Below are positions 1 through 56,253 of a stretch of 56,253 nt of DNA, one piece after another. Made by a program: the position numbers and the translations under genes. The notes beneath the pieces are model-generated. The model saw only the letters and a list, made by a program, of their open reading frames with translations. It searched no databases and had not been told where the DNA came from. Every line of letters begins with the position of its first letter. Position 1 is the first letter of the stretch. Source of the DNA: a virus (Duplodnaviria; Caudoviricetes); the IMG/VR virus record IMGVR_UViG_3300030451_004176, positions 1-56,253 of that record; one strand, written 5' to 3'.

Positions 1-266
1 CTTAATATTCCAGCAGATAAAGCATTTAATTGAACTAAATAACACCTTCCAGAAAGATTAGCATCTTTAGAAACTATTGCACTTGAACTTGAACTTGAGC
101 TTTTAAACCAGCCTGAAATACTAAAACTATCTGTAAATTGTAATTCTGTAGGATTGCCACAATTTATATACTCACTCCCATCAAAGGTTAGCCCATAGTT
201 ATCATTCTTACTACTATTCTCTTGGTTAGGTAATCTCCAGTTGCTTGCTATGTATTTTGTACTCAT
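1..266 (-). CDS. N-terminal part of a LamG/ConA-like fibre protein (runs off left edge)
   Basis: Not in the ORF track. Read manually as MSTKYIASNWRLPNQENSSKNDNYGLTFDGSEYINCG...FSISGWFK, open to position 1; paralogous to the N-terminus of 1924..5610. Confidence 0.85.
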   Translation of the reverse strand, partial: MSTKYIASNWRLPNQENSSKNDNYGLTFDGSEYINCGNPTELQFTDSFSISGWFKSSSSSSSAIVSKDANLSGRCYLVQLNALSAGIL

Positions 267-269
267 AAT

Positions 270-1217
270 TTAATCTCCTAATCTGTTCCAGTATTGTAAT
301 GAACTTGAATTTGTATAATTTCCTGTATCTGTGCTTAAATCTAATGCCTTGCCTGTGTTGTTGTTAGTAGCATTGTAAATCTCTGTAACTGCATCTGAAG
401 AAAGTGCTGTATTCCAAATGGCTACTTCATCTATCTTGCCATCCCATTCTGCTGTAGTTCCTCCACTATATATATAAGCTCCTATTACACCATTGCCATC
501 ACTATTATATAATTGGCTTGGATTAGTTCCTCCACCTGTGGAAAGTGTTTGTGCTACTCCATCTAAATAAATTTTAATTTTATCAACGTGTCCTGACTGT
601 GTACCATCATAAGTAAATGCAAGATGACGCCAACCATTTTTATAAAATACTTCTCCTGATGTTCTAACATATCCAACAGATGATGAATTTGCTCTAATAC
701 CTACCATTAACCCTATAGGTGATACACTACCTCCTAAATTATTTAATGTAAAATCAAAATGACCAGCATTATCTGCATTGTCCATTATTATACGCTGATT
801 TATAACTGTGCCATCCCAATAAACCCAAGCACTTACTGTCATAGCTGTTTGATTATTTAAGAAAGGCAGCCCACCTAATGCAACATAATTAGTTCCATCA
901 AATTCCATAGAATAGGTATTAACCAAGAATGGAGAAGCTGTAATACCTACTGTTTGGTTTGCTTGTACACCTCCAACAGTATAAGTTATTATATGACTAT
1001 CTATAGTAGAAGCGCTTAAATCAATCTGCCCTGTAGAGCTTGCTGTATTTGTTCCACTATCTACAAAAATAGTTCCAGTAGTACCTACAAAAACACCTCC
1101 TGGAGTTCCTGTAATTGTAGGAGTAGGATCAGCTTCATCTTGATGATAAGAACTCTTAGCATAACTAAATGCAGCCGAAGTTAAAACATTTAAAAGGCTG
1201 TGGTAGTGTCTGGACAT
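270..1217 (-). CDS. LamG/ConA-like virion fibre protein with N-terminal Ig-like segment
   Basis: YSMEFDG, TVSAWV, WRHLAFTYDG, GKIDEVAIWNTALS motifs; ends YWNRLGD. Confidence 0.85.
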   Translation of the reverse strand: MSRHYHSLLNVLTSAAFSYAKSSYHQDEADPTPTITGTPGGVFVGTTGTIFVDSGTNTASSTGQIDLSASTIDSHIITYTVGGVQANQTVGITASPFLVNTYSMEFDGTNYVALGGLPFLNNQTAMTVSAWVYWDGTVINQRIIMDNADNAGHFDFTLNNLGGSVSPIGLMVGIRANSSSVGYVRTSGEVFYKNGWRHLAFTYDGTQSGHVDKIKIYLDGVAQTLSTGGGTNPSQLYNSDGNGVIGAYIYSGGTTAEWDGKIDEVAIWNTALSSDAVTEIYNATNNNTGKALDLSTDTGNYTNSSSLQYWNRLGD

Positions 1218-1226
1218 AATACAAAA

Positions 1227-1634
1227 TTATGTAGATACTATCCAATACTCTACTCTAGTTCCACCCGCCCATTCTGCAAAAATGAGATTCAAAGCTGATG
1301 TGGTATATGTTCCACTTCCTATTAAAACCCACCCTGCTGGTACAGTAGGACCTGTGCCTGCATTGTGATAAATTTTTTGAACTATTCCTAACTGTGCGCC
1401 AGTTAAATCATTAGTGATGTTTCCTGTTGCAGGTGCTGATGAAGTATTGTATATTTCAGTTTGTGTAAAGCTAATTGCAGTTCCTGTAGTTTGAACAGCA
1501 GGTTCAACCGATGCTCTTATATCTGAAATAGTATATACTGGAGCCGTAGCATTAGCTTGACTAGACCTTCTATTAAGATCATCATTACTTGTAGGTATTC
1601 CTTGAAATTTTGTTCCTGTTGGTATTGTTGCCAT
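1227..1634 (-). CDS. putative virion fibre adaptor protein
   Basis: 135 aa, T/G-rich beta-type sequence lying between LamG genes. Confidence 0.55.
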   Translation of the reverse strand: MATIPTGTKFQGIPTSNDDLNRRSSQANATAPVYTISDIRASVEPAVQTTGTAISFTQTEIYNTSSAPATGNITNDLTGAQLGIVQKIYHNAGTGPTVPAGWVLIGSGTYTTSALNLIFAEWAGGTRVEYWIVST

Positions 1635-1646
1635 TGTATTATTTTT

Positions 1647-1895
1647 TTATTCTTCTGGTTCTGGTGCTGTCCACTCTGGAGTAGCTAATAACGCGAGGGC
1701 CTCTTCGTGATTAAGGGTAGATACAGGAACTAAAATTCCATTGGTTATAAAGCTAGGTTCTACTTGGTATGAAAGCATACTTTGAGAGTTAGCTACATTT
1801 CGTCTCATTGTCTGTGAACTTGTTGTATTGATCTGACTAAAATCTACTAAAGAAGTTTGCGTTTGAATATCTATTACTATGTAAGTTGTTGCCAT
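1647..1895 (-). CDS. small LamG-cassette-associated protein (paralog of 54705..54956)
   Basis: Both share TY.II.I...DFSQ(I/V)...TxR.NV..SQ....Y...P.FI..G...P..T.NH...L.L..T..W..PE. Confidence 0.75.
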   Translation of the reverse strand: MATTYIVIDIQTQTSLVDFSQINTTSSQTMRRNVANSQSMLSYQVEPSFITNGILVPVSTLNHEEALALLATPEWTAPEPEE

Positions 1896-1923
1896 TATTT
1901 AGTTTTTTACAAATTTAATAAAA

Positions 1924-4900
1924 TTAAGGGACATTTGTAGAACGTCCTGAGTTTGCTGGATTAGTTACCCCATCAGCGTAGTCACCCATATTAATGCTAT
2001 ATGCGTTTTTATCACTGCTAGACATATTACCTTTTAAATCTGCAATGGTTAAATTAGTTCCAGTTCCACTAGCTTCTGAACCAGGTGCGTTACCTACTAA
2101 ATCATCTACGTTACCTGTATTAGCTCCTTGTCCATCATTACTATTTTCAAGATCTCTAACCACCCAATCCGTTCCATCATAATAAGAACTATGCTCATCT
2201 AACGGCCACCAAGCCATTGGAGTTATTCTAAAGTTATTTAAATCTTGCGTAATACCATTGTTATATAAATTTATAATATCGTCTGATGAAAGAGCAGAAT
2301 CCCATATAGCTACATTAGATATTTCACCGTTATAAAAATTACCTACAACTCCAGTACTTGCATTCATTCCTGCGCCTATAATTAAAGGATCTGTAGAATC
2401 AATGTTACCAGTTGTATCAGTTTGAGTACTTACTAATGACCCATCTAAATAAAGCTTTATATTTCCACTTTCTCTAACTCCTACTACGTGATGCCAATTT
2501 CCATCTGCTACAGAACCTGAACTTTGTGCAGGTGTTGTTGGTGAAGAATTATCATCTAAAGCAAATCCAACTTTTTCACTAGAATCTAAATATAAAATAT
2601 ATGCTTTTCCTCCAGTACTAAATCCACCATTTATTACTAAATCCGCAACACTAACTACGTTTTGTGTAGTTTTAAACCAACAAGAAACACTACCATTTCC
2701 TGTACCCCAATTTAAAGAAGTATCATTACCACAATCAAAATAATCAGATTGAGCTGAATCAAAATTAAAACTATAGTTACTATACGGCTGTGTTCTAGTT
2801 AAATTACTAGTCACTAAGTTTGTAGTGTTCATACCTACGCTCTCACCATTTAACACAGAAACATTATTGTTTACTAAATTTTGTTCTGTCATCCCTGAAC
2901 TTAAAGCACTTTCTGCTGATACTGGTACATTGTCTACAATTATTGTAGAAGAATTAGCAATGCTTTGAATAGAAACTGAATTACCAGATTTATCATATAA
3001 ACCACCGCCAATAGTTTCTGTTTTATTTTCTAAAGTATTCCAAAGAAGCATACTTGAATTTTGTGGTATAGATTCTTTAGTTAACAAAGGTGTTCCATTG
3101 TTATATAATGTTGTTAATTCACTTGGTGTTAATGCTTTGTTCCAATATATAACATTTGACATTCTCATACCGTTAGCAGAACCATTACCATCTCTTATAG
3201 ATTGATTGTAATTTCTTGAGCCGCCTATATAAGGATTTAAATCGTACACTGTTCCTGTAGCTGATAAAGAATCAACTTCTTCATTATTGACATATGCTTT
3301 TATTACACTACCATTATAAGTCACTGTTAATAACCTCCATCCTACAGTAGGTGTACTAATATTCCCAAAATACAAGTTATTATTAACAAAACCTCCAGCA
3401 CCATCATTTGTTCTTAAAAGAATACTAACATTTGGTGCACCGCTTCTACTAACATTTACATAAAAGTTATAAGCCACATTATCACGGCTACCAAGTACTC
3501 TATCAAATGAGTTTATTGAATTATCGTGTAAATACCAAAACGATACAGTTAATTCTGGTTCGTTAATTAAGTTAAAGTTGTCATATGTTATAGCGTTATT
3601 ATTAGCAAATAATAAACACTTATCTACTGAAGCTGGGTATTTTTGATTTTCAACCAGCCAAGCTTCATATAAATTTTGAGTTTGGGAAGCATCTGGTTTT
3701 AGGTAAGTTTCTGTATTATCAAGTTTGTACCACGCTTTTAGGTTATCAGTGGCTATAGCAGTTGTTAAGGGTACTCCGTTGTTGTATAGTGTTTCTACTG
3801 AATCTGCACCTGTTGCTGGTAGTGAACTATTAAAAAGCATTACGTTGCTCATTTTGCCATCCCATTCATATGTACTATATTTTCCAATAATTAAATCACC
3901 ACTACCAGAAGGAATTGAAGTAGGAATAGAACCTAATGTAGTGAAAGCAACATAATTACCATCAGCGTAAACTTTTAATCTATCTGCATCAGTTGCACCA
4001 TTTCCGTCATAAACAATTGCAATATGCAACCATTTTTCTTCCCCAAGTGTTCCAAATTTACCAAGTGACCACGTACCTGCTATTTGACCAATGGCACTAC
4101 CTATCTTTACGTAAAATCGACCGCCACTTCCAGACCAGAAATAAAATCCAAAATTATCAACAGTACTTGTATAGGCAAGACCACTTTGTTGGTTTAATGA
4201 TGTAGGATTAACCCAAACTGAATAAGTTAAATTTGTATAGTTATCAACGTTAAGATTAGTATTTATAAAGTCATTACTCCCATCAAAATCAAAACTCTGT
4301 GGATATGCTGAAACTGCATCTGGTATCTGCCAATTGCCTGAACTATCTGCTTCCCAGTTTGCAGATTGGTCTAACTTATACCAAGCTTTTAGATTAGCTT
4401 CTTGAGGTTGTGTTCCTGTTAATGGCACTCCTGAATTGTAAAGTGTAGTAACTTCTGAAGCTAATAACTCTGTATCCCAAATTTGAACATTTGAAAGTTC
4501 TCCTTCAAAATAATGACCATTATAATCTCCATATCTACCTATAGTATAATTTTGTGTTCCTGCTGTACCAGCACTAATTGATGATGTATAAGTTCGTACT
4601 AAAGAACCATCTAAATAAAGTTTTTGACTTGTTCCATTAATTGCTAATGTTATATTATGCCAATTGTTATCATATGCAGCAGAAATATTATAGCTTGATA
4701 AATCATACCAAGAGGAACTGCCATTACCCATAATAGCAAAAAAGAAATTTTGATAAAAACCTAATTGTGCTCTTTGACTTCTTGATTGACCTGCTGAATT
4801 AGCATCAGCAAGAATAATTGAATCAGCTGCTGGTGCTGAAGCTATTTTAAACCAAGCAGAAAAACTATAAGCTGTTTCTGTTCCTATTTGAAAATTTGTA

Positions 4901-5610
4901 TTTACATAATCATTCCCATCAAACTCAAAAACACTATCTGCTCCAACTGAAATGTTAGGATAACCAGCATTTGAATTTGGATTTGAGTTGTCACCTAGTG
5001 GCCAATACGCTACAGGTTCTGCACCTGTTATAGCCATTGGATTGTTTAAGTTGTATAGGTAATTTCTTTGATCAGTAGATAATGTATAATCAAAAAAACA
5101 TACTTGTGAAATTTTACCACTAAAAGTTGCTGTTGTACTATGATATTTTCCTATTCTGAATGGATGTGTAGTGTTTAAAACTGTACCTGTTAGTGATGCT
5201 GTATCTTTTAAAACACCATCTAAATATACTTTAACATTAGTACCATCATAAACACCTATTACATTATACCAATTTCCTGTACTCCAGTCAGAAGTATTAA
5301 TATAAGTTGATACAGCAGTTTGGCTGCTATTTCTAACAACAAATCTTATATTACCACTTGTTTCAAGATTTAATGCAAAACTTCTATCTGTACCGCTTAA
5401 CCATTTTCCTAAAATACCTCTATCTTGACTTTTTAAATCAGAGTTAAACCAGCAAGAAAAAGAAAAAGAAGTTAAATCATCAAACAAAGATGGACTACCG
5501 CAGTCTATATAATCAGTACTTCCATTAAAGTTTATGCTATAATTACTTAACTTATCTTTGTTAGTGTTTCTTGGCATTCGCCACATTGGTGCTATATAAT
5601 TTGTACTCAT
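1924..5610 (-). CDS. five-LamG-domain virion fibre/adhesin
   Basis: Five repeats of FxFDG...S.W...W.H....DG...G.ISNV..W...L...LYN.G.P...W(Y/W).L(D/G). Confidence 0.9.
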   Translation of the reverse strand: MSTNYIAPMWRMPRNTNKDKLSNYSINFNGSTDYIDCGSPSLFDDLTSFSFSCWFNSDLKSQDRGILGKWLSGTDRSFALNLETSGNIRFVVRNSSQTAVSTYINTSDWSTGNWYNVIGVYDGTNVKVYLDGVLKDTASLTGTVLNTTHPFRIGKYHSTTATFSGKISQVCFFDYTLSTDQRNYLYNLNNPMAITGAEPVAYWPLGDNSNPNSNAGYPNISVGADSVFEFDGNDYVNTNFQIGTETAYSFSAWFKIASAPAADSIILADANSAGQSRSQRAQLGFYQNFFFAIMGNGSSSWYDLSSYNISAAYDNNWHNITLAINGTSQKLYLDGSLVRTYTSSISAGTAGTQNYTIGRYGDYNGHYFEGELSNVQIWDTELLASEVTTLYNSGVPLTGTQPQEANLKAWYKLDQSANWEADSSGNWQIPDAVSAYPQSFDFDGSNDFINTNLNVDNYTNLTYSVWVNPTSLNQQSGLAYTSTVDNFGFYFWSGSGGRFYVKIGSAIGQIAGTWSLGKFGTLGEEKWLHIAIVYDGNGATDADRLKVYADGNYVAFTTLGSIPTSIPSGSGDLIIGKYSTYEWDGKMSNVMLFNSSLPATGADSVETLYNNGVPLTTAIATDNLKAWYKLDNTETYLKPDASQTQNLYEAWLVENQKYPASVDKCLLFANNNAITYDNFNLINEPELTVSFWYLHDNSINSFDRVLGSRDNVAYNFYVNVSRSGAPNVSILLRTNDGAGGFVNNNLYFGNISTPTVGWRLLTVTYNGSVIKAYVNNEEVDSLSATGTVYDLNPYIGGSRNYNQSIRDGNGSANGMRMSNVIYWNKALTPSELTTLYNNGTPLLTKESIPQNSSMLLWNTLENKTETIGGGLYDKSGNSVSIQSIANSSTIIVDNVPVSAESALSSGMTEQNLVNNNVSVLNGESVGMNTTNLVTSNLTRTQPYSNYSFNFDSAQSDYFDCGNDTSLNWGTGNGSVSCWFKTTQNVVSVADLVINGGFSTGGKAYILYLDSSEKVGFALDDNSSPTTPAQSSGSVADGNWHHVVGVRESGNIKLYLDGSLVSTQTDTTGNIDSTDPLIIGAGMNASTGVVGNFYNGEISNVAIWDSALSSDDIINLYNNGITQDLNNFRITPMAWWPLDEHSSYYDGTDWVVRDLENSNDGQGANTGNVDDLVGNAPGSEASGTGTNLTIADLKGNMSSSDKNAYSINMGDYADGVTNPANSGRSTNVP

Positions 5611-5612
5611 AA

Positions 5613-6290
5613 TTAATCTCCCATTCTATACCAGGCAGCAGGTGCGCCTTCAGGTGTTTCACTTAAATCAGCTACCTTACCAGGATTATTTGCTGTGGCA
5701 TTGTATATAGCTTGTATTGTTTCTTCAGAAAGTTTTGTGCTCCAAATAGCTGCCTCATCAAGCTTACCAAGAAAAAAGTTACCTGTACCATTATAAGAAC
5801 CTATATGTAAATCCCTACTTGCTGCCTTAGTTCTTGTTGAACCTACTATTGTTTCTGTAAGTTGCCCATCAAAAAATTGCTTAATTGTATTTGTTGATTC
5901 TTCATATGTGAAAGCTATATGATGCCAAGTGTTTGTTGTAAGTCCTACAACGTTATAACCAGTATCAGCACTTAGTGTTCTTGTTTTTCTAAATGTTCTT
6001 ACACTACCATATCTATTAATAGAAATATCAAATCCAGCGATTGTAGAAGAACCAGAATTACCAAAAAAATAATCTGTATTTGTTCTTGTGTTTGATGTAT
6101 TAACCCAAATACAAGCTGACACATCTCCATTATCTAGATCTTGAAAAAGCCCAGCATTAAACGTACTAGCCACACCATCAAACTCCATTGAAAAACTATT
6201 ATCAATAGCAGTGTAAGCAAATGCACCACCGCCAGCGCCAGGTGTTGACTTAAATATAGTCGCTATGCCTACACCAATTGTTGTAAACAT
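5613..6290 (-). CDS. single-LamG head-fibre protein with N-terminal IGVGI docking peptide
   Basis: LamG motifs; ends WYRMGD; directly follows the spike-base-like gene. Confidence 0.8.
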   Translation of the reverse strand: MFTTIGVGIATIFKSTPGAGGGAFAYTAIDNSFSMEFDGVASTFNAGLFQDLDNGDVSACIWVNTSNTRTNTDYFFGNSGSSTIAGFDISINRYGSVRTFRKTRTLSADTGYNVVGLTTNTWHHIAFTYEESTNTIKQFFDGQLTETIVGSTRTKAASRDLHIGSYNGTGNFFLGKLDEAAIWSTKLSEETIQAIYNATANNPGKVADLSETPEGAPAAWYRMGD

Positions 6291-6767
6291 TTACCAAAGA
6301 GCTATGAAGTCAGCTGCAGTTGCAGTACCAGTGGCTTTTACAACTTTAGTCTGTACAGGTAAAAAAGAAGCGTTTGCGATGTTTTTAAATAAAACAGTGT
6401 TTTCGTCTGCAGTAAATAGGTTAACGTCTCCCCCTGTGCCCACAAATATGATGCAAGGTTCTTTAGCTACTTGACTATATATGATGTAAGCTTTAGAAGT
6501 TCCCGTAAATATATCTGCACTTAAAGTAAGTGTAGTGTCATTGTCTACTGCTTTAACTATTGCATAAGACCCGTCTGTACTATTTTCTACAATGTATCCA
6601 GTTTCTACTGTAGTTGTAAAACTAGTTCCAGAAGCCACTAACTTATTAGATGTAACAGAAGCGTTAGTCCCTGATGTAGCTATTCGAGAAGGATCTGGAT
6701 AAGCATTGATGTTATCCGTAGCAAATACTTTTAATGCTCTTGATGTTTGTAATTTTTGATATGCCAT
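6291..6767 (-). CDS. capsid vertex spike-base protein (RcGTA Rcc01079-like) with inserted beta domain
   Basis: C-terminal IFVGTGGDV...VLFKNIANASFLPVQTKVVKATGTATAADFIALW matches the family pattern as I recall it. Confidence 0.7.
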   Translation of the reverse strand: MAYQKLQTSRALKVFATDNINAYPDPSRIATSGTNASVTSNKLVASGTSFTTTVETGYIVENSTDGSYAIVKAVDNDTTLTLSADIFTGTSKAYIIYSQVAKEPCIIFVGTGGDVNLFTADENTVLFKNIANASFLPVQTKVVKATGTATAADFIALW

Positions 6768-6770
6768 TTT

Positions 6771-6929
6771 TTATTCTTTTGTAAAAGGATATTTTCGATT
6801 TAATGTATCTCGTCTTTCTTCACATCCACACGGTTTTCCTGTCATTTTAGAAACTGCTTTTACTCCAGCTTTTACTCCAGTAACCGTTGTGGCGAGATTA
6901 ATCACATCTCCTAATCCTTTCATTTTCAT
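6771..6929 (-). CDS. small hypothetical protein with GLGD...CGC motif
   Basis: Manual translation: MKMKGLGDVINLATTVTGVKAGVKAVSKMTGKPCGCEERRDTLNRKYPFTKE; tightly packed in the operon. Confidence 0.7.
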   Translation of the reverse strand: MKMKGLGDVINLATTVTGVKAGVKAVSKMTGKPCGCEERRDTLNRKYPFTKE

Positions 6930-6933
6930 ATTA

Positions 6934-7089
6934 TTACTTTTTAAACGCTAGTAAAAATTCTCTTGCAGCGACACCAAAAGCAAAGCCCCCATATAATGGG
7001 TGAGATTCTAAAATCATCAGTGCCCCAATCCCAACTGCACAAGCAGACTTAAATATGGGGTGTGCTATAATTAATGATATTTTTTTCAT
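6934..7089 (-). CDS. small membrane protein
   Basis: Manual translation, 51 aa with two hydrophobic stretches; start overlaps the upstream stop. Confidence 0.6.
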   Translation of the reverse strand: MKKISLIIAHPIFKSACAVGIGALMILESHPLYGGFAFGVAAREFLLAFKK

Positions 7090-7304
7090 TTTTTTATTAA
7101 TTTTCCTATATGTGATTTTACGCTTTTAGGGTAGTGCTTGTCTTCTTTCATTGAATGATCTCCAGAGTAAGCGTGACCTGTTAGATGTTTAGAATCTCCT
7201 TTAGATTCGTCTCTTCTAGCTTTCAAATCTTGCTTGTACTTTTTTCCTTTATGCTTCATTCCTAAAGACTCGTCTAATCTGTCGTTGTAACCTTGGTGTT
7301 TCAT
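7086..7304 (-). CDS. small basic hypothetical protein
   Basis: 72 aa, K/H-rich, in operon. Confidence 0.65.
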   Translation of the reverse strand: MKHQGYNDRLDESLGMKHKGKKYKQDLKARRDESKGDSKHLTGHAYSGDHSMKEDKHYPKSVKSHIGKLIKK

Positions 7305-7307
7305 TTT

Positions 7308-7415
7308 TTATTTTTTATATGGGTTTGATATTTTAACTAAAGTTTTTTTTGGTTTTATTGTTTTAACTCCACTCTTAACATATTGCTTAGAGGTTTTTTT
7401 TAATGTTTTTGGCAT
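7308..7415 (-). CDS. tiny Lys-rich protein
   Basis: Manual translation: MPKTLKKTSKQYVKSGVKTIKPKKTLVKISNPYKK; fills the gap exactly. Confidence 0.5.
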   Translation of the reverse strand: MPKTLKKTSKQYVKSGVKTIKPKKTLVKISNPYKK

Positions 7416-7420
7416 TTTAT

Positions 7421-7606
7421 TTATTTTTTAAATAAGTTAATATTAGCATTGGCTAGCTCTTGAGCTTCTGCCATCATCTGTACTTTGTCGTACCTTTTCA
7501 TTTGTTTTTTCATTCTAGCTAATTTAGAAATTCCCATTTCTGGTTGTGGTCTTAAATTAACTTCTCGGCCATCAATCATTCCGAGTCCGTCCATAAAATT
7601 TTTCAT
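7421..7606 (-). CDS. hypothetical protein
   Basis: 61 aa, downstream of the TATATTTG box at 7622-7629. Confidence 0.65.
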   Translation of the reverse strand: MKNFMDGLGMIDGREVNLRPQPEMGISKLARMKKQMKRYDKVQMMAEAQELANANINLFKK

Positions 7607-7633
7607 AGTGATTTATTTTTACAAATATACAAA

Positions 7634-7927
7634 TTAATATTTACCCCTTCTTGATTTAGGAGAACTCTTAGTAGATCCTCCTTTGCCAGCCCACAAGTGT
7701 TTACACGCCCAATACCGAGCTGTCAACTTCGATGTAGCCGTGTCACACTTATGTCTAGCTCTAAAACTTGTTCTAGCTGCCTTTGAGTAATTGTGACCGT
7801 ATCCTTTAGCGCCAAAGTGAATTAGCTTTTCTTTACCACCTTGACAAGCTTTTACCATTTTTTTCTTACCAGGTCTTGTGCTAGCACGTACTACATTGCA
7901 CTTCATATTTTTTTTACTCGTAGCCAT
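7634..7927 (-). CDS. basic viral protein (DUF5754-like)
   Basis: STRPGKK...IHFGAKGY...FRARHKC...ARYWA..LW pattern. Confidence 0.65.
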   Translation of the reverse strand: MATSKKNMKCNVVRASTRPGKKKMVKACQGGKEKLIHFGAKGYGHNYSKAARTSFRARHKCDTATSKLTARYWACKHLWAGKGGSTKSSPKSRRGKY

Positions 7928-8331
7928 TACCTTCTTTTTTTCTTTTCTACCTCTACTTCCTTCACAATTATAGTTGGTTTATTTTTTTTGTTCTTTAACT
8001 CTTCCAACTGTCTATTAAGTTCTTCTAGTTTACCATCACTTTCTGATCCTTCTTGAATTAATATAGACAATACTTTTAATTCTTCAAACAAAACATCATC
8101 TACCTGCTCTAACATATCTACTCTTTCTTGAAGATCTTCTATATTTTCTTTATTCCACTCTTCTTTTAGGTCATATTCTAGCCTTTTTACCTCTGTAGGC
8201 GGCAACATCTTTGCTTCTGCAATATCTTCCTGTAATGTATAATACATACCTACAAAAGAAGATGTTATCATTATTATTGCTATTACTGTCTTAATATCTA
8301 TTTTAAATTCTGTCGATTCAGATACCTTCAC
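7927..8331 (-). CDS. membrane-anchored coiled-coil protein
   Basis: N-terminal TM segment followed by a long E/L heptad helix. Confidence 0.65.
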   Translation of the reverse strand: MKVSESTEFKIDIKTVIAIIMITSSFVGMYYTLQEDIAEAKMLPPTEVKRLEYDLKEEWNKENIEDLQERVDMLEQVDDVLFEELKVLSILIQEGSESDGKLEELNRQLEELKNKKNKPTIIVKEVEVEKKKRR

Positions 8332-9796: not shown

Positions 9797-10019
9797 CTAC
9801 GTAAGATTTATCTAAAATAATTACTTCGTGTGCTTGCGCCTTGTCGTAATAGATCTCGTCTCCTTTATTAATCGTTTCCACTAGGTCACTAGTCTCTACC
9901 ACATTTGCTTTCTTGTATCTGAGTTGATTCTTATCGTCACTACTTAACAAAAGCCCAGAGTTAGTCTTTACTTCTTCTGTAATCGGATCAATCAGTATGT
10001 ATTTATTTACCGGCTTCAT
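9762..10019 (-). CDS. groES: co-chaperonin GroES
   Basis: MKPVNKYILIDP...KTNSGLLL...GDEIYY...YVVIQERDVVVV; adjacent to groEL. Confidence 0.9.
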   Translation of the reverse strand: MKPVNKYILIDPITEEVKTNSGLLLSSDDKNQLRYKKANVVETSDLVETINKGDEIYYDKAQAHEVIILDKSYVVIQERDVVVVL

Positions 10020-11619
10020 AATTACTGCTTACTTCTCTCGCCATTGTAATAATAGCGTTAGTGCTTAATATAGTCGTAGCCACTGATACAGCATTGACTA
10101 GTGCGTTCTTAGTTACTTTAAGTGGATCTAATATCCCCATCTTATACATATCACCCCACATATTGTTCTTCACATCGTATCCCATATTTACCTCACTGTT
10201 CTGGATCAACGTCTCTATCTCCGCAATCTCCATATCCTCCATCCCTGCGTTTTTACATATATTAAAGAAAGGCTCGGTAATACAATACCTATACAGCAAT
10301 ATCTCTCCAAAACTAGCACCAGTATCCATTAATTTAGAAGACGCCCTATATAAACTAACTCCTCCTCCTGGAAGAACCCCTTCTTCAAGTGCTGAACTCA
10401 CAGCACACACCGCATCCTCGATGCGGTCAAATTTTTCTTTCTGCTCAATGTCAGAGTGCGCACCCACAAAGATTACTCCTATCCCACCTTTCAAACTAGC
10501 TATACGCTCTGTTACAAAGTCTCGCTCACCCTTAGCCGTTAAACTACCGTGCTGTATCTTGAGCTCCTTAACCCTTTCCTCAATAGCTACCTTATCACCT
10601 TTGCCACCAATCATCACGGTGTCTTCTCTACTTACTATTACCTTCTCTGCTATACCAAGCTGGTCTAACGATATCATATTTAAATCATCACCCGTAGACT
10701 CGCTTATATAACTACCGCCAGTAGCCAAAGCAATGTCGCCCATTATCTCCTGCTTCTTATAGCCAAACTTAGGTGGAGTAATATTACATATCTTTAAACC
10801 ATTTCTTGCTGCATTAGCCGCAAGCGTATTCACTACGTTCTGGCTGCAGTCTGCAATAATAAGCAGCTCCTTGCCCTGATTAATAATTGGTTTTAATATA
10901 TTCTCAATTTGCAATACATTATTAATAACGTGATCCGTAATTAGCACATAACAGTTCTCCAGCACACACTCGTCCCGCTTGTGATTATTGATAAACGCAT
11001 TGTTGGTATATCCCCTCTGCAGTTTAATACCATCATATACCTCAGCATAAGTCTCTGAAGTCTCCGAGTTCTCTACCGTCACCACGCCATCAGCACCCAC
11101 CTTCTCGTAAGCCTCCGCAATGATCTTTCCTATCTCCCTGTCGTTATTTGCCGATATAGAAGCCACATCAAGCAGTCTCTTTTTATTTAGCTTCTTAGCC
11201 ATTCTCTCCAGCTCTTTGACTACTTTATCCCTTCCTTCGTTGATCTGCTTTACAAGCTTAGGAATATTGATATCTGGCTGCTCCTCCAACTCCTCCAACC
11301 CCTGTTCTATCAATGCTTCCGCCAGAACGATGCTCGTTGTCGTACCATCTCCAGCCGAATCTGCAGTGTTTTGAGAAGCCTCTCTAATCATCTGAACCGC
11401 TAGATTTTCTACCGGATCTAACAAGTAAACCGACTTAGCTACAGTCACTCCATCCTTTGTAACTGTAATACCACGGGTATGATTAGGGGATTCTATAACT
11501 ACTGTTTTACCAGCCGGACCAAGCGTGCTCTTTACTGCGTTGCAGATTTTAGTAATACCGCTTTTTAACTTGCGCTTGGCCTTCTCATCAAAGACCAACT
11601 CTTTAGGGGTGTAGGACAT
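10003..11619 (-). CDS. groEL: chaperonin GroEL
   Basis: STLGPAG, TKDGVTVAK, AGDGTTT, EEGVLPGGG, GILDPLKVTK motifs; 538 aa. Confidence 0.97.
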   Translation of the reverse strand: MSYTPKELVFDEKAKRKLKSGITKICNAVKSTLGPAGKTVVIESPNHTRGITVTKDGVTVAKSVYLLDPVENLAVQMIREASQNTADSAGDGTTTSIVLAEALIEQGLEELEEQPDINIPKLVKQINEGRDKVVKELERMAKKLNKKRLLDVASISANNDREIGKIIAEAYEKVGADGVVTVENSETSETYAEVYDGIKLQRGYTNNAFINNHKRDECVLENCYVLITDHVINNVLQIENILKPIINQGKELLIIADCSQNVVNTLAANAARNGLKICNITPPKFGYKKQEIMGDIALATGGSYISESTGDDLNMISLDQLGIAEKVIVSREDTVMIGGKGDKVAIEERVKELKIQHGSLTAKGERDFVTERIASLKGGIGVIFVGAHSDIEQKEKFDRIEDAVCAVSSALEEGVLPGGGVSLYRASSKLMDTGASFGEILLYRYCITEPFFNICKNAGMEDMEIAEIETLIQNSEVNMGYDVKNNMWGDMYKMGILDPLKVTKNALVNAVSVATTILSTNAIITMAREVSSNYEAGK

Positions 11620-52194: not shown

Positions 52195-53355
52195 TTACGA
52201 TTTCCAGAAATGCAAACAAATTCTTTTTACCGAATTAGCTTCAGCATCTGTAGGTAGGTCTGTGCTTAAATTTGAAGTAGGAGTAGCATCATATGCTGCT
52301 GTTGACTGTGATAAATTAACATCAGTTAAAGAAACAGTTTTTCCTAAAGGTCTGTAACTATTGGAAGAAACTCTTATAACAATATTTTGTCCATCTGTTA
52401 AATTAAACGGCTCTGAAAATGTTCCGGTATTTATTCCTGCTGTAGCACCGCTAATAGTTACACTACCTAATAAAGCTCCAGAGGCAGCAGTTAAGGTTCC
52501 GCTATAAATAGCTACATTTATATCTACGCCTGCATTTGTTGTAGAAGACCATAAAGAAACTCTATTTACTCCTGTAATATTCGCATCTGAAACAGCTTGT
52601 GTCCAAATAGTCCAATTTCCGTTTTGAGCTGAGTCTCCTGAATATATTTCTAAAGGGGAAAACCCATCATCTTCAGCAGCTGCCGAAACGGCTGCCCATT
52701 TCACACCTCCTGTTTGTGTGCTATCTGCTGTAAGCACGTGATTGTTTGTACCTACAGGCAAAGCTATAGGGTCTGTAACCCCATCACCTACTAATAAAGA
52801 TCCTTTGGCAGTAACGTCTAAAGCAGTAATAGCTGAAGTTCCGCTACCTAATAAAACAAAACCATCTGAAAAACTAGTGGCTCCAGTCCCTCCATTGGCC
52901 ACCGCTAGAGTTCCTGATACATTATCAACACTTATTTGTGCAAAGTTAGCATTGACGCCATTAGAAGTTAAAACATATCCTGTATCAGCAGCAGCAGCAT
53001 TAGTTAAGTTATCTATTGCAGCTTGGCGTGTAGCAGCTCCAGTTCCTCCGTCTGCAATAGCCAGTGTTCCTGTTATAGATGAAGCTCCTAAATCAACAGC
53101 CATCTCTGTGGCTTCAAATACAATTCCACCGTTTAATTTTAAATCAGCACTTATTGTAGATGGAACAGTTCCAAAATTAATATCTATACCATCTCCCGCC
53201 TGTATAGACGCACCTCCACCACCAATGAAGTTAGCTATGGATTGCATTGTTACCGTTTTAGTGCTGTTAGAATCGCTAACGTCTGTTAATACTAAATAGT
53301 CCCCAGCTGCTGGGGTTATAGAGGGGTAGGATGAGGTATCAGATATTTTAGCCAT
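52195..53355 (-). CDS. tail fibre protein
   Basis: MAKIS...DYLVLTD anchor; GTLA(I/V)A.GGTGA repeats; [16 protein letters not shown]. Confidence 0.75.
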
Positions 53356-54068: not shown

Positions 54069-54250
54069 TTTCCTATAAGACCTTCAATAAAAGTGGCAAG
54101 ACTTGCTCCAAAGATAGCTAGAGAAGTCCAGAATTTTTTCTCTAAGCTTCTGATTCGGTTTTCGTGATCATTCTTTTGCTTACTAATCTCTTCTAGCTTA
54201 GTTGTAATAACAGCTTGTCCCTCCAATAATTGATTTATTTTTTCTTCCAT
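54065..54250 (-). CDS. small coiled-coil membrane protein (lysis-associated)
   Basis: DHENRIRSLEK plus C-terminal TM. Confidence 0.6.
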   Translation of the reverse strand: MEEKINQLLEGQAVITTKLEEISKQKNDHENRIRSLEKKFWTSLAIFGASLATFIEGLIGK

Positions 54251-54708
54251 TGTTTGTAACGTGTTCTGTTCTTACTGTCTTTGTAAGCAACAAGTATTTG
54301 GTTTCTTTGTTTTTCGCCTGGATTATATGATATATGAACCCAATCGGGGTTTTCGTCTGTTCCGAACTCCCAAATCATTTGATCAAAATCCAAATTATCT
54401 TTTACAAAGATAAACAAATCTGAGTTATCTGGCTGAGAATGACCGTCTCTGTCCAGATCTATAGCTTGTCCTTTGCTATGTTGAGATGTTTTACTACCTC
54501 CTATAGCCTCATTAAGAGCTTTTGATCGGTATCCAGAAGATATATGAATAGGAACGCCAAAGTAATCTCTAATAGGTTGAAAGATGTTTTCTGCTAGGGC
54601 TTTCATATTCTCAATGTGCTCTGGTGTGGGAGTGTTGTCAATGCCTTTTCGTAAAGCAGTCCAGCTCTTAGTCATTTCTTTTAACGATAGGTTTTTAGAT
54701 AGTTTCAT
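54235..54708 (-). CDS. endolysin, peptidase M15 family
   Basis: SSGYRS..LN..IGG...SQH..GQAID...WVHISY; start reassigned to MKLSKN. Confidence 0.9.
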   Translation of the reverse strand: MKLSKNLSLKEMTKSWTALRKGIDNTPTPEHIENMKALAENIFQPIRDYFGVPIHISSGYRSKALNEAIGGSKTSQHSKGQAIDLDRDGHSQPDNSDLFIFVKDNLDFDQMIWEFGTDENPDWVHISYNPGEKQRNQILVAYKDSKNRTRYKQWKKK

Positions 54709-54956
54709 TCTGATAGAGGTGTTTCTGGTGAGTTCCAAGCATCAGTAGACATTAAAACTAAGCAATCTGCGTGGTTCATAGTTTCTATTGGGGTTACAGT
54801 TCCATCCTTTATAAAAATAGGTGTTGAGGTGTATTTAATAACAAATTGTGATTCATCAACATTTTTACGAATTGTGTTTTCACTTTTTTCATATACCTGT
54901 GAAAAGTCAATGTTGCTTAAATCTGCTATATTTATTATTGAATATGTTTTTTCCAT
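54705..54956 (-). CDS. small LamG-cassette-associated protein (paralog of 1647..1895)
   Basis: IDFSQV...TIRKNV...P.F motif. Confidence 0.75.
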   Translation of the reverse strand: MEKTYSIINIADLSNIDFSQVYEKSENTIRKNVDESQFVIKYTSTPIFIKDGTVTPIETMNHADCLVLMSTDAWNSPETPLSE

Positions 54957-54965
54957 TTTTATATT

Positions 54966-55724
54966 TTAAGTCGGTACATCTTCTACAATATCGCTTGATG
55001 ATGCGTTTATCATTGTTAAATTATATCCGCTTGTTCCGTGATCGATTAATGTAGGATATGTATCACCATCTCCCATACGATACCAAGTTGTAGGTGCGGT
55101 TAAACCGTTACTATTTAAATCGTTTGGCACCCCTGAATTATATATAGTTGAAGCATCATCCCTTAAATCAACACCAGACCATAAAGCAACTTCATCTAAA
55201 TTACCCTGAAAAGATTTATTTGCTTGTGTAGTACCACCAACTGTCAAAGTAGCTGGATGTGATGGAAAACTTGAGTTACCTATAGCTGAACTTAATGTTA
55301 CTTCGCTACCATCAACAAACAATTTTGTTTTATTTTCATTTGGTGATAAACTTAAATCTACACAAAATAAAATATGATGCCATAAACCGTCTTGCCTAAA
55401 ATTGCCTATGTCTACAAATACCTTTTTTCCAGATGTACCTTGTGCCAAAGTAAATATAAATTTTACTTGGCTTCCCATAGTTAATTCTATTTCAAATGTT
55501 TTTCTGCTATATGGTGGTCCAACTTTTACTACAGTATCGTGTTGGTTGCTATTATTTCCGTTGCATTTAAACCAAAAAGAAAAAGAACCTTTTGTTTCCC
55601 CATCAAATTCAGAATAATTCACTGATGTTTCCGTCCTTGAATCAATCCCATCAAAAAGAATTGATTTAGTGTTTGTAAAGGAGGGACCTGCTACATTTAA
55701 TAAGCTATGATAATGTCTACTCAT
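54966..55724 (-). CDS. single-LamG fibre protein
   Basis: LamG motifs; first 11 aa identical to 270..1217. Confidence 0.85.
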   Translation of the reverse strand: MSRHYHSLLNVAGPSFTNTKSILFDGIDSRTETSVNYSEFDGETKGSFSFWFKCNGNNSNQHDTVVKVGPPYSRKTFEIELTMGSQVKFIFTLAQGTSGKKVFVDIGNFRQDGLWHHILFCVDLSLSPNENKTKLFVDGSEVTLSSAIGNSSFPSHPATLTVGGTTQANKSFQGNLDEVALWSGVDLRDDASTIYNSGVPNDLNSNGLTAPTTWYRMGDGDTYPTLIDHGTSGYNLTMINASSSDIVEDVPT

Positions 55725-56253
55725 TACGGTGTATCTTCTACTCTTGCAGTTTCACTCATATTAATACTCCAACTATTGTTATCACTCCATTTAGTGCTTC
55801 CTTCTAAATTTGTAGGCACATCCATATTAGTGCCTGTTCCATTTGCTTCACTTCTTGGTGCATCTCCTACTAAACCATCAATTCCTATGTTCTGTCCTGT
55901 TCCATCATTTGAGCCACCTGTAGACATATCTCTTACAGTCCATTGGCTACCATTCCAAAAGCTATTACTTCCTAAAGGATACCAAGCTACAGGTTGAGGT
56001 GTGAAACTTGTAAGGTCTTGAGGTACACCATTTGAATATAGTTTTAGAACTTCTGTAGATGTTAACTCTTCATTGAATACAGATATATTTGACATCTTAC
56101 CATTTAAGTGTCTATTACCAAAACTTCTACCAATTTTAAAGGGTGCTGCCGTGTTTGTCATAGCTACATAAGTACCATTTACAAAGGTTGAAGTAGTCAT
56201 TTCATCTCCATTTAAATATATTTTTAAACCGCTTACACTTGCACTACCATCAT
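55724..56253 (-). CDS. C-terminal part of a LamG fibre protein (runs off right edge)
   Basis: Frame open to the window end (DGSASVSGLKIYLNG...); C-terminus parallels 1924..5610. Confidence 0.85.
   Translation of the reverse strand, partial: DGSASVSGLKIYLNGDEMTTSTFVNGTYVAMTNTAAPFKIGRSFGNRHLNGKMSNISVFNEELTSTEVLKLYSNGVPQDLTSFTPQPVAWYPLGSNSFWNGSQWTVRDMSTGGSNDGTGQNIGIDGLVGDAPRSEANGTGTNMDVPTNLEGSTKWSDNNSWSINMSETARVEDTP

Follow-up and report, generated by a model that had tools for sequence, protein, structure and literature searches.

Fixed chain ends and movable chain breaks in the LamG-bead fibre cassette of a marine podovirus-like phage: a likely head-to-tail joint between neighbouring chains

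How could several separately translated proteins be held together, end to end, as one fibre? The question is raised by the IMG/VR virus record IMGVR_UViG_3300030451_004176, which was analysed over its whole length of 56,253 nucleotides (nt; the window hereafter) and which carries the fibre genes of a phage that is marine, podovirus-like and related to phages of Flavobacteriia. All fibre genes of the window lie on the minus strand and encode chains of LamG domains (beads) in which one end motif and one start motif recur. A chain that stops at the strand termed here the W-strand is referred to as an M-end, and a chain that opens with a strand of the MST.YIA..WR(M/L)P type as an N-start. The reading we favour, to which the sequences lead us to give a probability of roughly 0.6, is a head-to-tail joint in which the W-strand end of one chain meets the N-terminal strand of the next. 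A preliminary description of the same DNA, made from its letters alone, had proposed a more elaborate assembly, with nested LamG domains whose truncated cores are completed by a strand and a surplus tail segment of another chain; the non-covalent joint in that proposal is made likely by the pairing of ends and by fused and re-split relatives, while the nesting, the truncation and the part assigned to the tail have found no support.

Two junctions in the window set the pattern (Table 1). At the first, the 225-amino acid (aa) chain terminates in AAWYRMGD, and its TAA stop is followed by a spacer of 2 nt (tt) and the ATG of the 1228-aa gene, whose product opens with the N-start strand MSTNYIAPMWRMPRN (5566..5610, minus strand) and has its WRMP element beginning at residue 10. 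At the second, the 315-aa chain, which starts MSRHYHSLLNV, ends in QYWNRLGD, and TAA and a spacer of 3 nt (att) precede the ATG opening MSTKYIASNWRLPNQ. Both ends and both following starts, 2-3 nt away, had been read in the same way in the preliminary description, which also pointed to a closing segment in the 252-aa protein and to a W..P strand after WYKLD inside the 1228-aa protein. These observations hold: the 252-aa protein, starting MSRHYHSLLNV, extends 34 residues beyond WYRMGD (..TLIDHGTSGYNLTMIN..DIVEDVPT), and the W..IP strand NWQIPD follows WYKLDQ at residue 410 of the 1228-aa protein. In the family of the 225-aa chain (114 sequences) W220 and Y221 are invariant and A219, R222, M223, G224 and D225 are at least 90% conserved. 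Against an overall identity of ~40%, hardly any variation is seen in the residues that open the ordered part (F.YTAIDNSFSMEFDG) or in the final 30. The N-start strand of the long-chain relatives has T3, W10 and R11 invariant.

The two motifs recur, and recur together, well beyond the window. A search among proteins of similar length gave 199 relatives of the 225-aa protein at an expectation value (E) of 1e-3 or less, and 118 of the 120 listed end in the W-strand motif (108 WYRMGD, 5 AWYRFE, 2 WNRLGD and 3 single variants), the other 2 appearing truncated. The first bead of the long chain has 168 relatives at the same threshold; among the 120 listed, 87 carry the full N-start, the gene call begins at an internal Met in 24 and 9 have other starts, while their ends comprise 92 with the same tail as the 1228-aa protein, 5 with WYRMGD, 3 with ..EDTP and 20 others, half of which (10) read ..NFSN or ..IIDYAN. 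In 80 related loci there are 42 N-start genes, 3 of them at locus edges and 39 with an upstream open reading frame (ORF) that ends within 60 nt; each of the 39 upstream ORFs closes with the W-strand motif and a TAA codon. Scanned from the M-end side, 92 loci gave 80 distinct W-strand ends, of which 74 have an ORF fitting the N-start pattern within 13 nt (one of the 74 is a false positive, the second small chain in L075); 2 more proved on inspection to be followed by N-start variants, and for the remaining 4 no start lies within 20 nt. Such regularity far exceeds what chance would give, and the pairing of M-end with N-start is obligate. Co-variation of M and L between W.R[ML]GD and WR[ML]P was considered as evidence of contact and set aside, as it tracks a few lineages: all 6 RLGD ends pair with WRLP, but WRLP also occurs with RMGD, and RMGD also with WRQP. 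The public gene call P0136 (1220 aa) places its start at the internal Met of MWRMP (window 5584-5610); relatives have Ile or Thr at that Met, and the true start of the long chain is therefore the upstream MST.. ATG.

In the arrangement that we propose, the fibre would be a string of LamG/pentraxin-like β-sandwich beads, themselves variable and connected by conserved linkers that run in the order helix, W-strand (M), optional hairpin, second W/V..P strand (N) and first strand of the next bead. Different phages break the polypeptide at different linkers, two of the breaks in the window falling between M and N, with upstream chains (225 and 315 aa) that end ...W.R(M/L)GD and downstream chains that open M.T.Y.....WR(M/L)P. 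The N-terminal strand of the downstream chain, which is the most probable donor of the joint, would lie against the last bead or the W-strand of the upstream chain, and the sheet that is continuous in fused relatives would be restored non-covalently, head to tail, from the 225-aa to the 1228-aa chain and from the 315-aa chain to the MSTKY chain. The bead cores are predicted to fold on their own and stand in tandem rather than nested. Granted such a joint, the chances that it amounts to true donation of a strand to the upstream bead are about even.

The fused relatives for which a survey had been suggested do exist. In P0216 (742 aa) and in an ORF of L013 cut by the contig end the linker runs unbroken through the junction, in the order W-strand, six residues, a ..LPQILMPEN.. 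element and the next bead. Breaks can also multiply: L034 (1-3107) and L036 (3736-10478) encode the fibre in four chains, divided at the WYRMGD site and at two further sites, one after a ..FNFSN strand and one inside the stack of segments after the fourth bead, both of which are continuous in the 1228-aa protein of the window. Large proteins may themselves end in WYRMGD (P0138, P0141, P0188, P0195 and P0197), and the two that were read, P0138 and P0195, have an N-start and the tail, then one more bead ending WYRMGD; in three-chain loci, L059 included, such a protein stands between an M-end chain and an N-start chain. Bead cores vary at about 40% identity, and it is the termini and linkers that are conserved. 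The core of the 225-aa bead recurs at 66% identity, with different flanks, as an internal bead of P0121 (and of L012, 354-1730), which is direct evidence for the shuffling of single beads between chains. Read from the sequences, the fibre is a beads-on-a-string array in which beads and breaks are alike mobile, every break lying in a linker.

What argues for a joint at these breaks is a form of bookkeeping. On a topology in which the W-strand belongs to the bead before it, every bead of the window receives its W-strand and a following strand in cis, except those ending WYRMGD or WNRLGD, for which no candidate second strand exists other than the N-terminus of the chain that follows. Beads that have W-strand, hairpin and V.D.P in cis, namely the 252-aa protein here and a 232-aa protein with the same kind of end in L011, are not followed by an N-start chain. 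Since M-only ends are almost always followed by an N-start, beads closed in cis are not, and the linker is continuous elsewhere, a joint is likely. The layout of P0122, a bacterial-type LamG_3 array, bears on the same point: one W element precedes every core and none follows the last, and W element and core therefore form one unit, of which the phage arrays are a circularly shifted version. With M and N normally parts of one structural unit, a break between them cuts inside that unit.

The shuffling of beads just described, which is real, and the two small M-end chains that stand in tandem before one long chain in L075 also speak for an alternative that we regard as rather unlikely, namely that there is no physical joint, that the chains attach independently as fibre or decoration proteins, and that their conserved ends serve translational coupling and as crossover linkers. 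Translational coupling does operate at the junctions, which combine GGAGAT, TAA and a short spacer: the final GD codons, GGAGAT, form a Shine-Dalgarno-like site 5-6 nt before the ATG at both junctions of the window, and synonymous codon identity, for which codon usage predicts 0.52-0.54, is 0.64-0.65 in the flanking stretches and rises to 0.76-0.77 at the junction. However, a ribosome-binding role of the GD codons accounts for only a few codons and not for 30 invariant residues; some 30 C-terminal and 25 N-terminal residues are conserved, far beyond what a ribosome-binding site needs, and 23% of the junction codons still differ at identical residues, which indicates that selection acts on the protein. 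Independent attachment would also sit poorly with the four-chain variants, whose downstream chains open with ordinary linker pieces and share no anchor motif. Exceedingly improbable, by comparison, is the production of one covalent polypeptide by TAA readthrough or frameshifting. It could be entertained at 270/266, where the two genes are in the same frame with TAA and one codon between them, but at 5613/5610 the 2-nt spacer (5611-5612) leaves the genes out of frame, each downstream gene has its own ATG with GGAG just upstream at both window junctions, and the spacers of 76 junctions measure 0, 1, 2, 3, 4, 8, 9, 10, 11, 12 or 13 nt and so fall in all three frames, which rules out a uniform readthrough or frameshift.

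Structure prediction addresses whether an M-end bead is complete. Modelled alone with AlphaFold2 (114-row alignment), the 225-aa chain has a mean predicted local distance difference test score (pLDDT) of 84.9, a predicted template modelling score (pTM) of 0.83 and 15 strands; the core lies at pLDDT 85-97, residues 1-21 fall below 50, and the W-strand is in place as a strand at residues 219-221, the 211-220 block scoring about 90. The truncated core of the preliminary description is thus not borne out, although a missing edge strand would still be compatible with the model. Residues 617-1228 of the long chain (68-row alignment; pLDDT 75.6, pTM 0.50) contain cores 4 and 5, and both are confident in this construct, which lacks cores 1-3. 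The W-strand after core 5 (pLDDT about 91) is packed with its hairpin and a V..L.GNAP element at 76-91 over residues 1133-1176, and the W-strand, hairpin and V element after core 4 score 65-79, whereas the W-strand at 626-631, modelled without its own core 3, scores 52-70 and forms no strand. Assignment of the W-strand to the preceding bead is favoured by these models, as it is confident only where the preceding core is present and terminal beads end with it.

Foldseek places the 225-aa model nearest to pentraxins (4pbp, PTX3, SAP and CRP; E from 2.5e-9, template modelling score about 0.5). Pentraxins, too, have their last two strands after the helix. Laminin_G_3 (PF13385; threshold 27.6 bits) matches the 225-aa chain at 75.6 bits (E 5.9e-21), the 1228-aa chain at 310.4, the 315-aa chain at 80.7, the 252-aa protein at 59.1 and the 55724..56251 fragment at 38.5, and gives no match in the 88-aa fragment 3..266. 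Each small protein has one Laminin_G_3 stretch and the 1228-aa protein five, in agreement with the five cores first counted, its W-strands beginning at residues 203, 410, 627, 857 and 1134. Pentaxin (PF00354; threshold 25 bits) reaches 47.9 bits in the 1228-aa protein over residues 1021-1120, a stretch that also lies under the stronger Laminin_G_3 match; it remains below the cut-off in the 252-aa protein (17.7 bits) and does not match the 225-aa chain. In a profile search of solved structures the alignments stop at profile positions 197-209, before the W-strand, and do not show to which core it belongs.

Taken together, the models speak against nested domains and against any core being unable to fold unaided. 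In the nested arrangement first proposed, RMGD-ending beads would be unable to close alone and would be completed by the N-terminal strand plus a surplus segment of the tail. The obligate pairing of ends is what this arrangement would lead one to expect, and the monomer model leaves four of its six closing segments (residues 914-940 and 1180-1227) unpacked despite their being the best conserved, so that they would be free to bind elsewhere. We nevertheless hold it to be improbable: the RMGD-ending chain folds alone and cores 4 and 5 fold without cores 1-3; the tail of fused relatives leads to a next bead or to a non-LamG domain and not back upstream, no result linking it to the 225-aa chain; and where L034 and L036 break the first stack, its second and third segments stay with the following bead. 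Of the observations that were to count against the nested arrangement, independent folding of the RMGD-ending protein is predicted, whereas packing of all six segments within the long chain is not. The count of six closing segments, stacked three and three, could not be reproduced objectively, the linker between cores 4 and 5 and the tail not being significantly similar (BLASTP E 4.6, two short collinear matches only). A positive correlation between the number of cores and the number of 'GM..NLV' elements (rho 0.52) was dropped as uninterpretable, given a crude regular expression and a maximum of five cores per protein in the hidden Markov model search.

The same unpacked segments deserve attention in their own right. 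Residues 914-940 and 1180-1227 (window 2791-2871 and 1930-2073) are predicted to be disordered, at pLDDT 37-43. Column identity is ~0.79 over residues 914-940, where pLDDT stays below 50 and just before which the chain breaks in L034 and L036. It is 0.75-0.94 in the tail, whose packed W-strand, hairpin and V..L.GNAP are followed by a last stretch of ~50 residues that is conserved and predicted to be disordered, and whose motif is present in 250 representatives. Overall, conservation is higher where confidence is low: mean column identity is 0.77 over 9 low-confidence blocks and 0.48 over the remaining 53 (Mann-Whitney p 9e-5, Spearman -0.40). From the models, these segments look like candidates for folding on binding and probably bind a partner, for which a further bead, the 82-aa protein or other copies of the long chain itself are candidates. 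In relatives the tail continues into a further bead (P0138, P0195 and P0377) or is followed in the same chain by a non-LamG domain of ~250 residues ending ..NTTLGRQV (P0354, P0361 and P0371; L075 and L117), which may be a distal tip that is lacking or separately encoded in the phage of the window. The tail encoded at 55724..56251 is homologous to that of the 1228-aa protein (49% identity, E 3e-22), as had been noted. Pfam at E ≤ 10 returned nothing meaningful (DUF3833, E 0.16) for the tail, the core 4-core 5 linker, the 252-aa closure or the N-start peptide.

The head-to-tail joint can be extended, tentatively and with the odds against it, to a fibre that snaps together throughout, in which each downstream chain would donate its WR(M/L)P strand and the disordered tail would dock on the next bead of the MSRHYH type, giving a daisy chain from the 225-aa chain through the 1228-aa, 315-aa and MSTKY chains to the 252-aa bead. 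Were this true, phages could exchange whole chains or individual beads with the joints undisturbed, and a donor-strand-like assembly on a lectin fold would be widespread in uncultured marine phages.

Several results weigh against the joint itself. No interface has been obtained between the 225-aa and the 1228-aa chain; a complex prediction with the 225-aa chain and residues 1-212 of the long chain returned scores of 0.00 and 0.00 without controls and is counted neither way. With the 225-aa chain confidently complete by itself in prediction, a need for a donated strand is nowhere apparent. The N-type element AWLV (650-653) is modelled as a strand at pLDDT 74-82 though its preceding core is absent, and N may on this model belong to the following bead, which would place the break at a plain domain boundary. 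In beads 1 and 2 of the long chain the W-strand is followed by neither a hairpin nor a clear W..P strand, and these elements are therefore dispensable. Internal linkers are conserved too, so that conserved termini alone are no proof of contact between chains, and the GD codons double as a ribosome-binding site in a region of somewhat raised synonymous identity.

Comparison with known assemblies helps to place the proposed joint. In the long tail fibre of T4 the products of neighbouring genes (gp34, gp35, gp36 and gp37) are joined end to end non-covalently, and the likeness would lie in several neighbouring genes contributing to one fibre and in a small separate protein encoded nearby, an assembly factor in T4 and a possible one here. 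That the window chains form one fibre is argued for by gene order and by the fused and alternatively split relatives. There is, however, no sequence relation to the T4 fibre (PHROGs gave no such match), and T4 fibres are trimeric β-structures, while the window fibre is a string of LamG beads with movable breaks inside a domain linker. In chaperone-usher pili the acceptor fold is incomplete and unstable alone and receives a donor strand from the next subunit; here, likewise, the chain that follows would contribute a β-strand through its conserved N-terminal extension, head to tail. Such an extension is present (87 of the 120 listed relatives, plus the 24 internal-Met calls), but the acceptor is predicted to be complete by itself (pTM 0.83, core pLDDT 85-97). 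The window system also differs in using a LamG/pentraxin jelly roll and not an Ig-like fold, in consisting of a fixed set of different chains and not a homopolymer, and in having no evident chaperone or usher. Bacterial Laminin_G_3 arrays share the domain family, and pentraxins are the solved folds closest to the 225-aa model; in the bacterial array P0122 the W-strand/hairpin element precedes each core, whereas in the phage chains it follows the core, and the phage arrays are cut into separate genes. The branched multi-tailspike complexes of CBA120 and G7C are assembled through dedicated N-terminal docking domains. As is proposed for the window, receptor-binding proteins encoded side by side are held by conserved terminal modules, but those complexes form branches, while the window ends are single linker strands and imply a linear geometry.

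End-to-end fibres of several gene products, as in T4, and LamG domains on phage proteins are thus already known. No description of such a LamG-bead phage fibre was found in the text returned by full-text literature searches, and to the extent of that text the new elements are a fixed pair of strand-like ends, movable breaks in an array of lectin beads, and conserved unfolded segments, which provide defined candidates for binding-coupled folding. If the joint is real, it would be a simple and portable way of assembling long receptor-binding fibres from exchangeable pieces, would explain how host-recognition modules are reshuffled in a large group of uncultured marine phages (hundreds of protein clusters, with a terminase related to those of Flavobacterium and Cellulophaga phages), and would add a lectin fold to the few strand-exchange assembly systems and a scaffold for engineered fibres.

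The record is linear, is taken whole as the window, has a G+C content of 32.7% and is estimated to be ~93% complete. Its genes include those for a large terminase, a portal, virion proteins, a GroEL-like chaperonin and a primase/helicase. The terminase shares 75% identity with its counterpart in an uncultured freshwater phage and 45% with those of podophages of Flavobacterium and Cellulophaga, and from these relatives the host is probably a member of the Flavobacteriia. In nucleotide searches, window 1-8000 gave three short blastn matches only, all outside the fibre genes, and the 225-aa protein had no tblastn match in the phage collection. Both contig ends lie inside LamG fibre genes, one in the start of the MSTKY chain and the other in the end of a tail-bearing chain. 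Joining the two ends is out of frame, and some sequence is therefore missing between them; 3..266 and 55724..56251 are probably one gene (chain 4) broken by assembly, full-length relatives of which measure ~960-1190 aa.

Table 1. Positions of the fibre genes, of elements within them and of neighbouring genes in the window.
Feature	Position	Strand	Basis
158-aa protein, directly upstream of the fibre cassette	6291..6767	-	ORF
Chain 1, 225-aa single LamG bead, M-end	5613..6290	-	ORF and Pfam
W-strand AWYRMGD, C-terminus of chain 1	5616..5636	-	Sequence and AlphaFold2
Chain 2, 1228 aa, five LamG beads	1924..5610	-	ORF and Pfam
Second and third segments of the stack after core 4, residues 914-940	2791..2871	-	AlphaFold2 and alignment
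Tail after core 5, residues 1134-1228	1927..2211	-	AlphaFold2 and alignment
82-aa protein h82, after the tail-bearing chain	1647..1895	-	ORF
135-aa protein	1227..1634	-	Gene-order list
Chain 3, 315-aa LamG protein, M-end	270..1217	-	ORF and Pfam
Start of chain 4, MSTKYIASNWRLPNQ.., cut by the contig end	3..266	-	ORF
C-terminal part of a LamG chain with homologous tail	55724..56251	-	ORF and BLASTP
Chain 5, 252-aa self-contained terminal bead	54966..55724	-	ORF and Pfam
Terminal-bead closure: W-strand, hairpin (TLIDHG..NLTMIN), DIVEDVPT	54969..55088	-	Sequence
83-aa paralogue of h82	54705..54956	-	ORF
Endolysin	54235..54738	-	Family match

Around the cassette, residues 107-155 of the 158-aa protein give a weak match to a PHROG annotated as tail fiber protein (E 4.3e-5); a homologue stands upstream of the small chain in L010, and a 98-aa ORF takes that place in L014-L016. 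The C-terminal 96 residues of the 252-aa protein match the very end of phrog_347 (E 5.8e-14). A homologue of h82, of ~80 aa, follows the last fibre chain in most related loci; family searches of h82 (Pfam and PHROGs) gave no meaningful match and a protein-cluster search found only its own cluster, and the protein may be an assembly factor. In L015 a ..NLPGQS..GGG motif stands at the N-terminus both of the small LamG chains and of a 559-aa non-LamG protein (6459-8138), which suggests from sequence a common virion anchor of several fibre proteins. The phage-encoded GroEL-like chaperonin lies at 10003-11619 (phrog_5725, E 2.5e-137). The 386-aa product of 52195-53355 has repeats rich in Gly, Thr and Ala, matches no family and may be another fibre or spike; L035 has a 551-aa homologue of it near the lysis genes.

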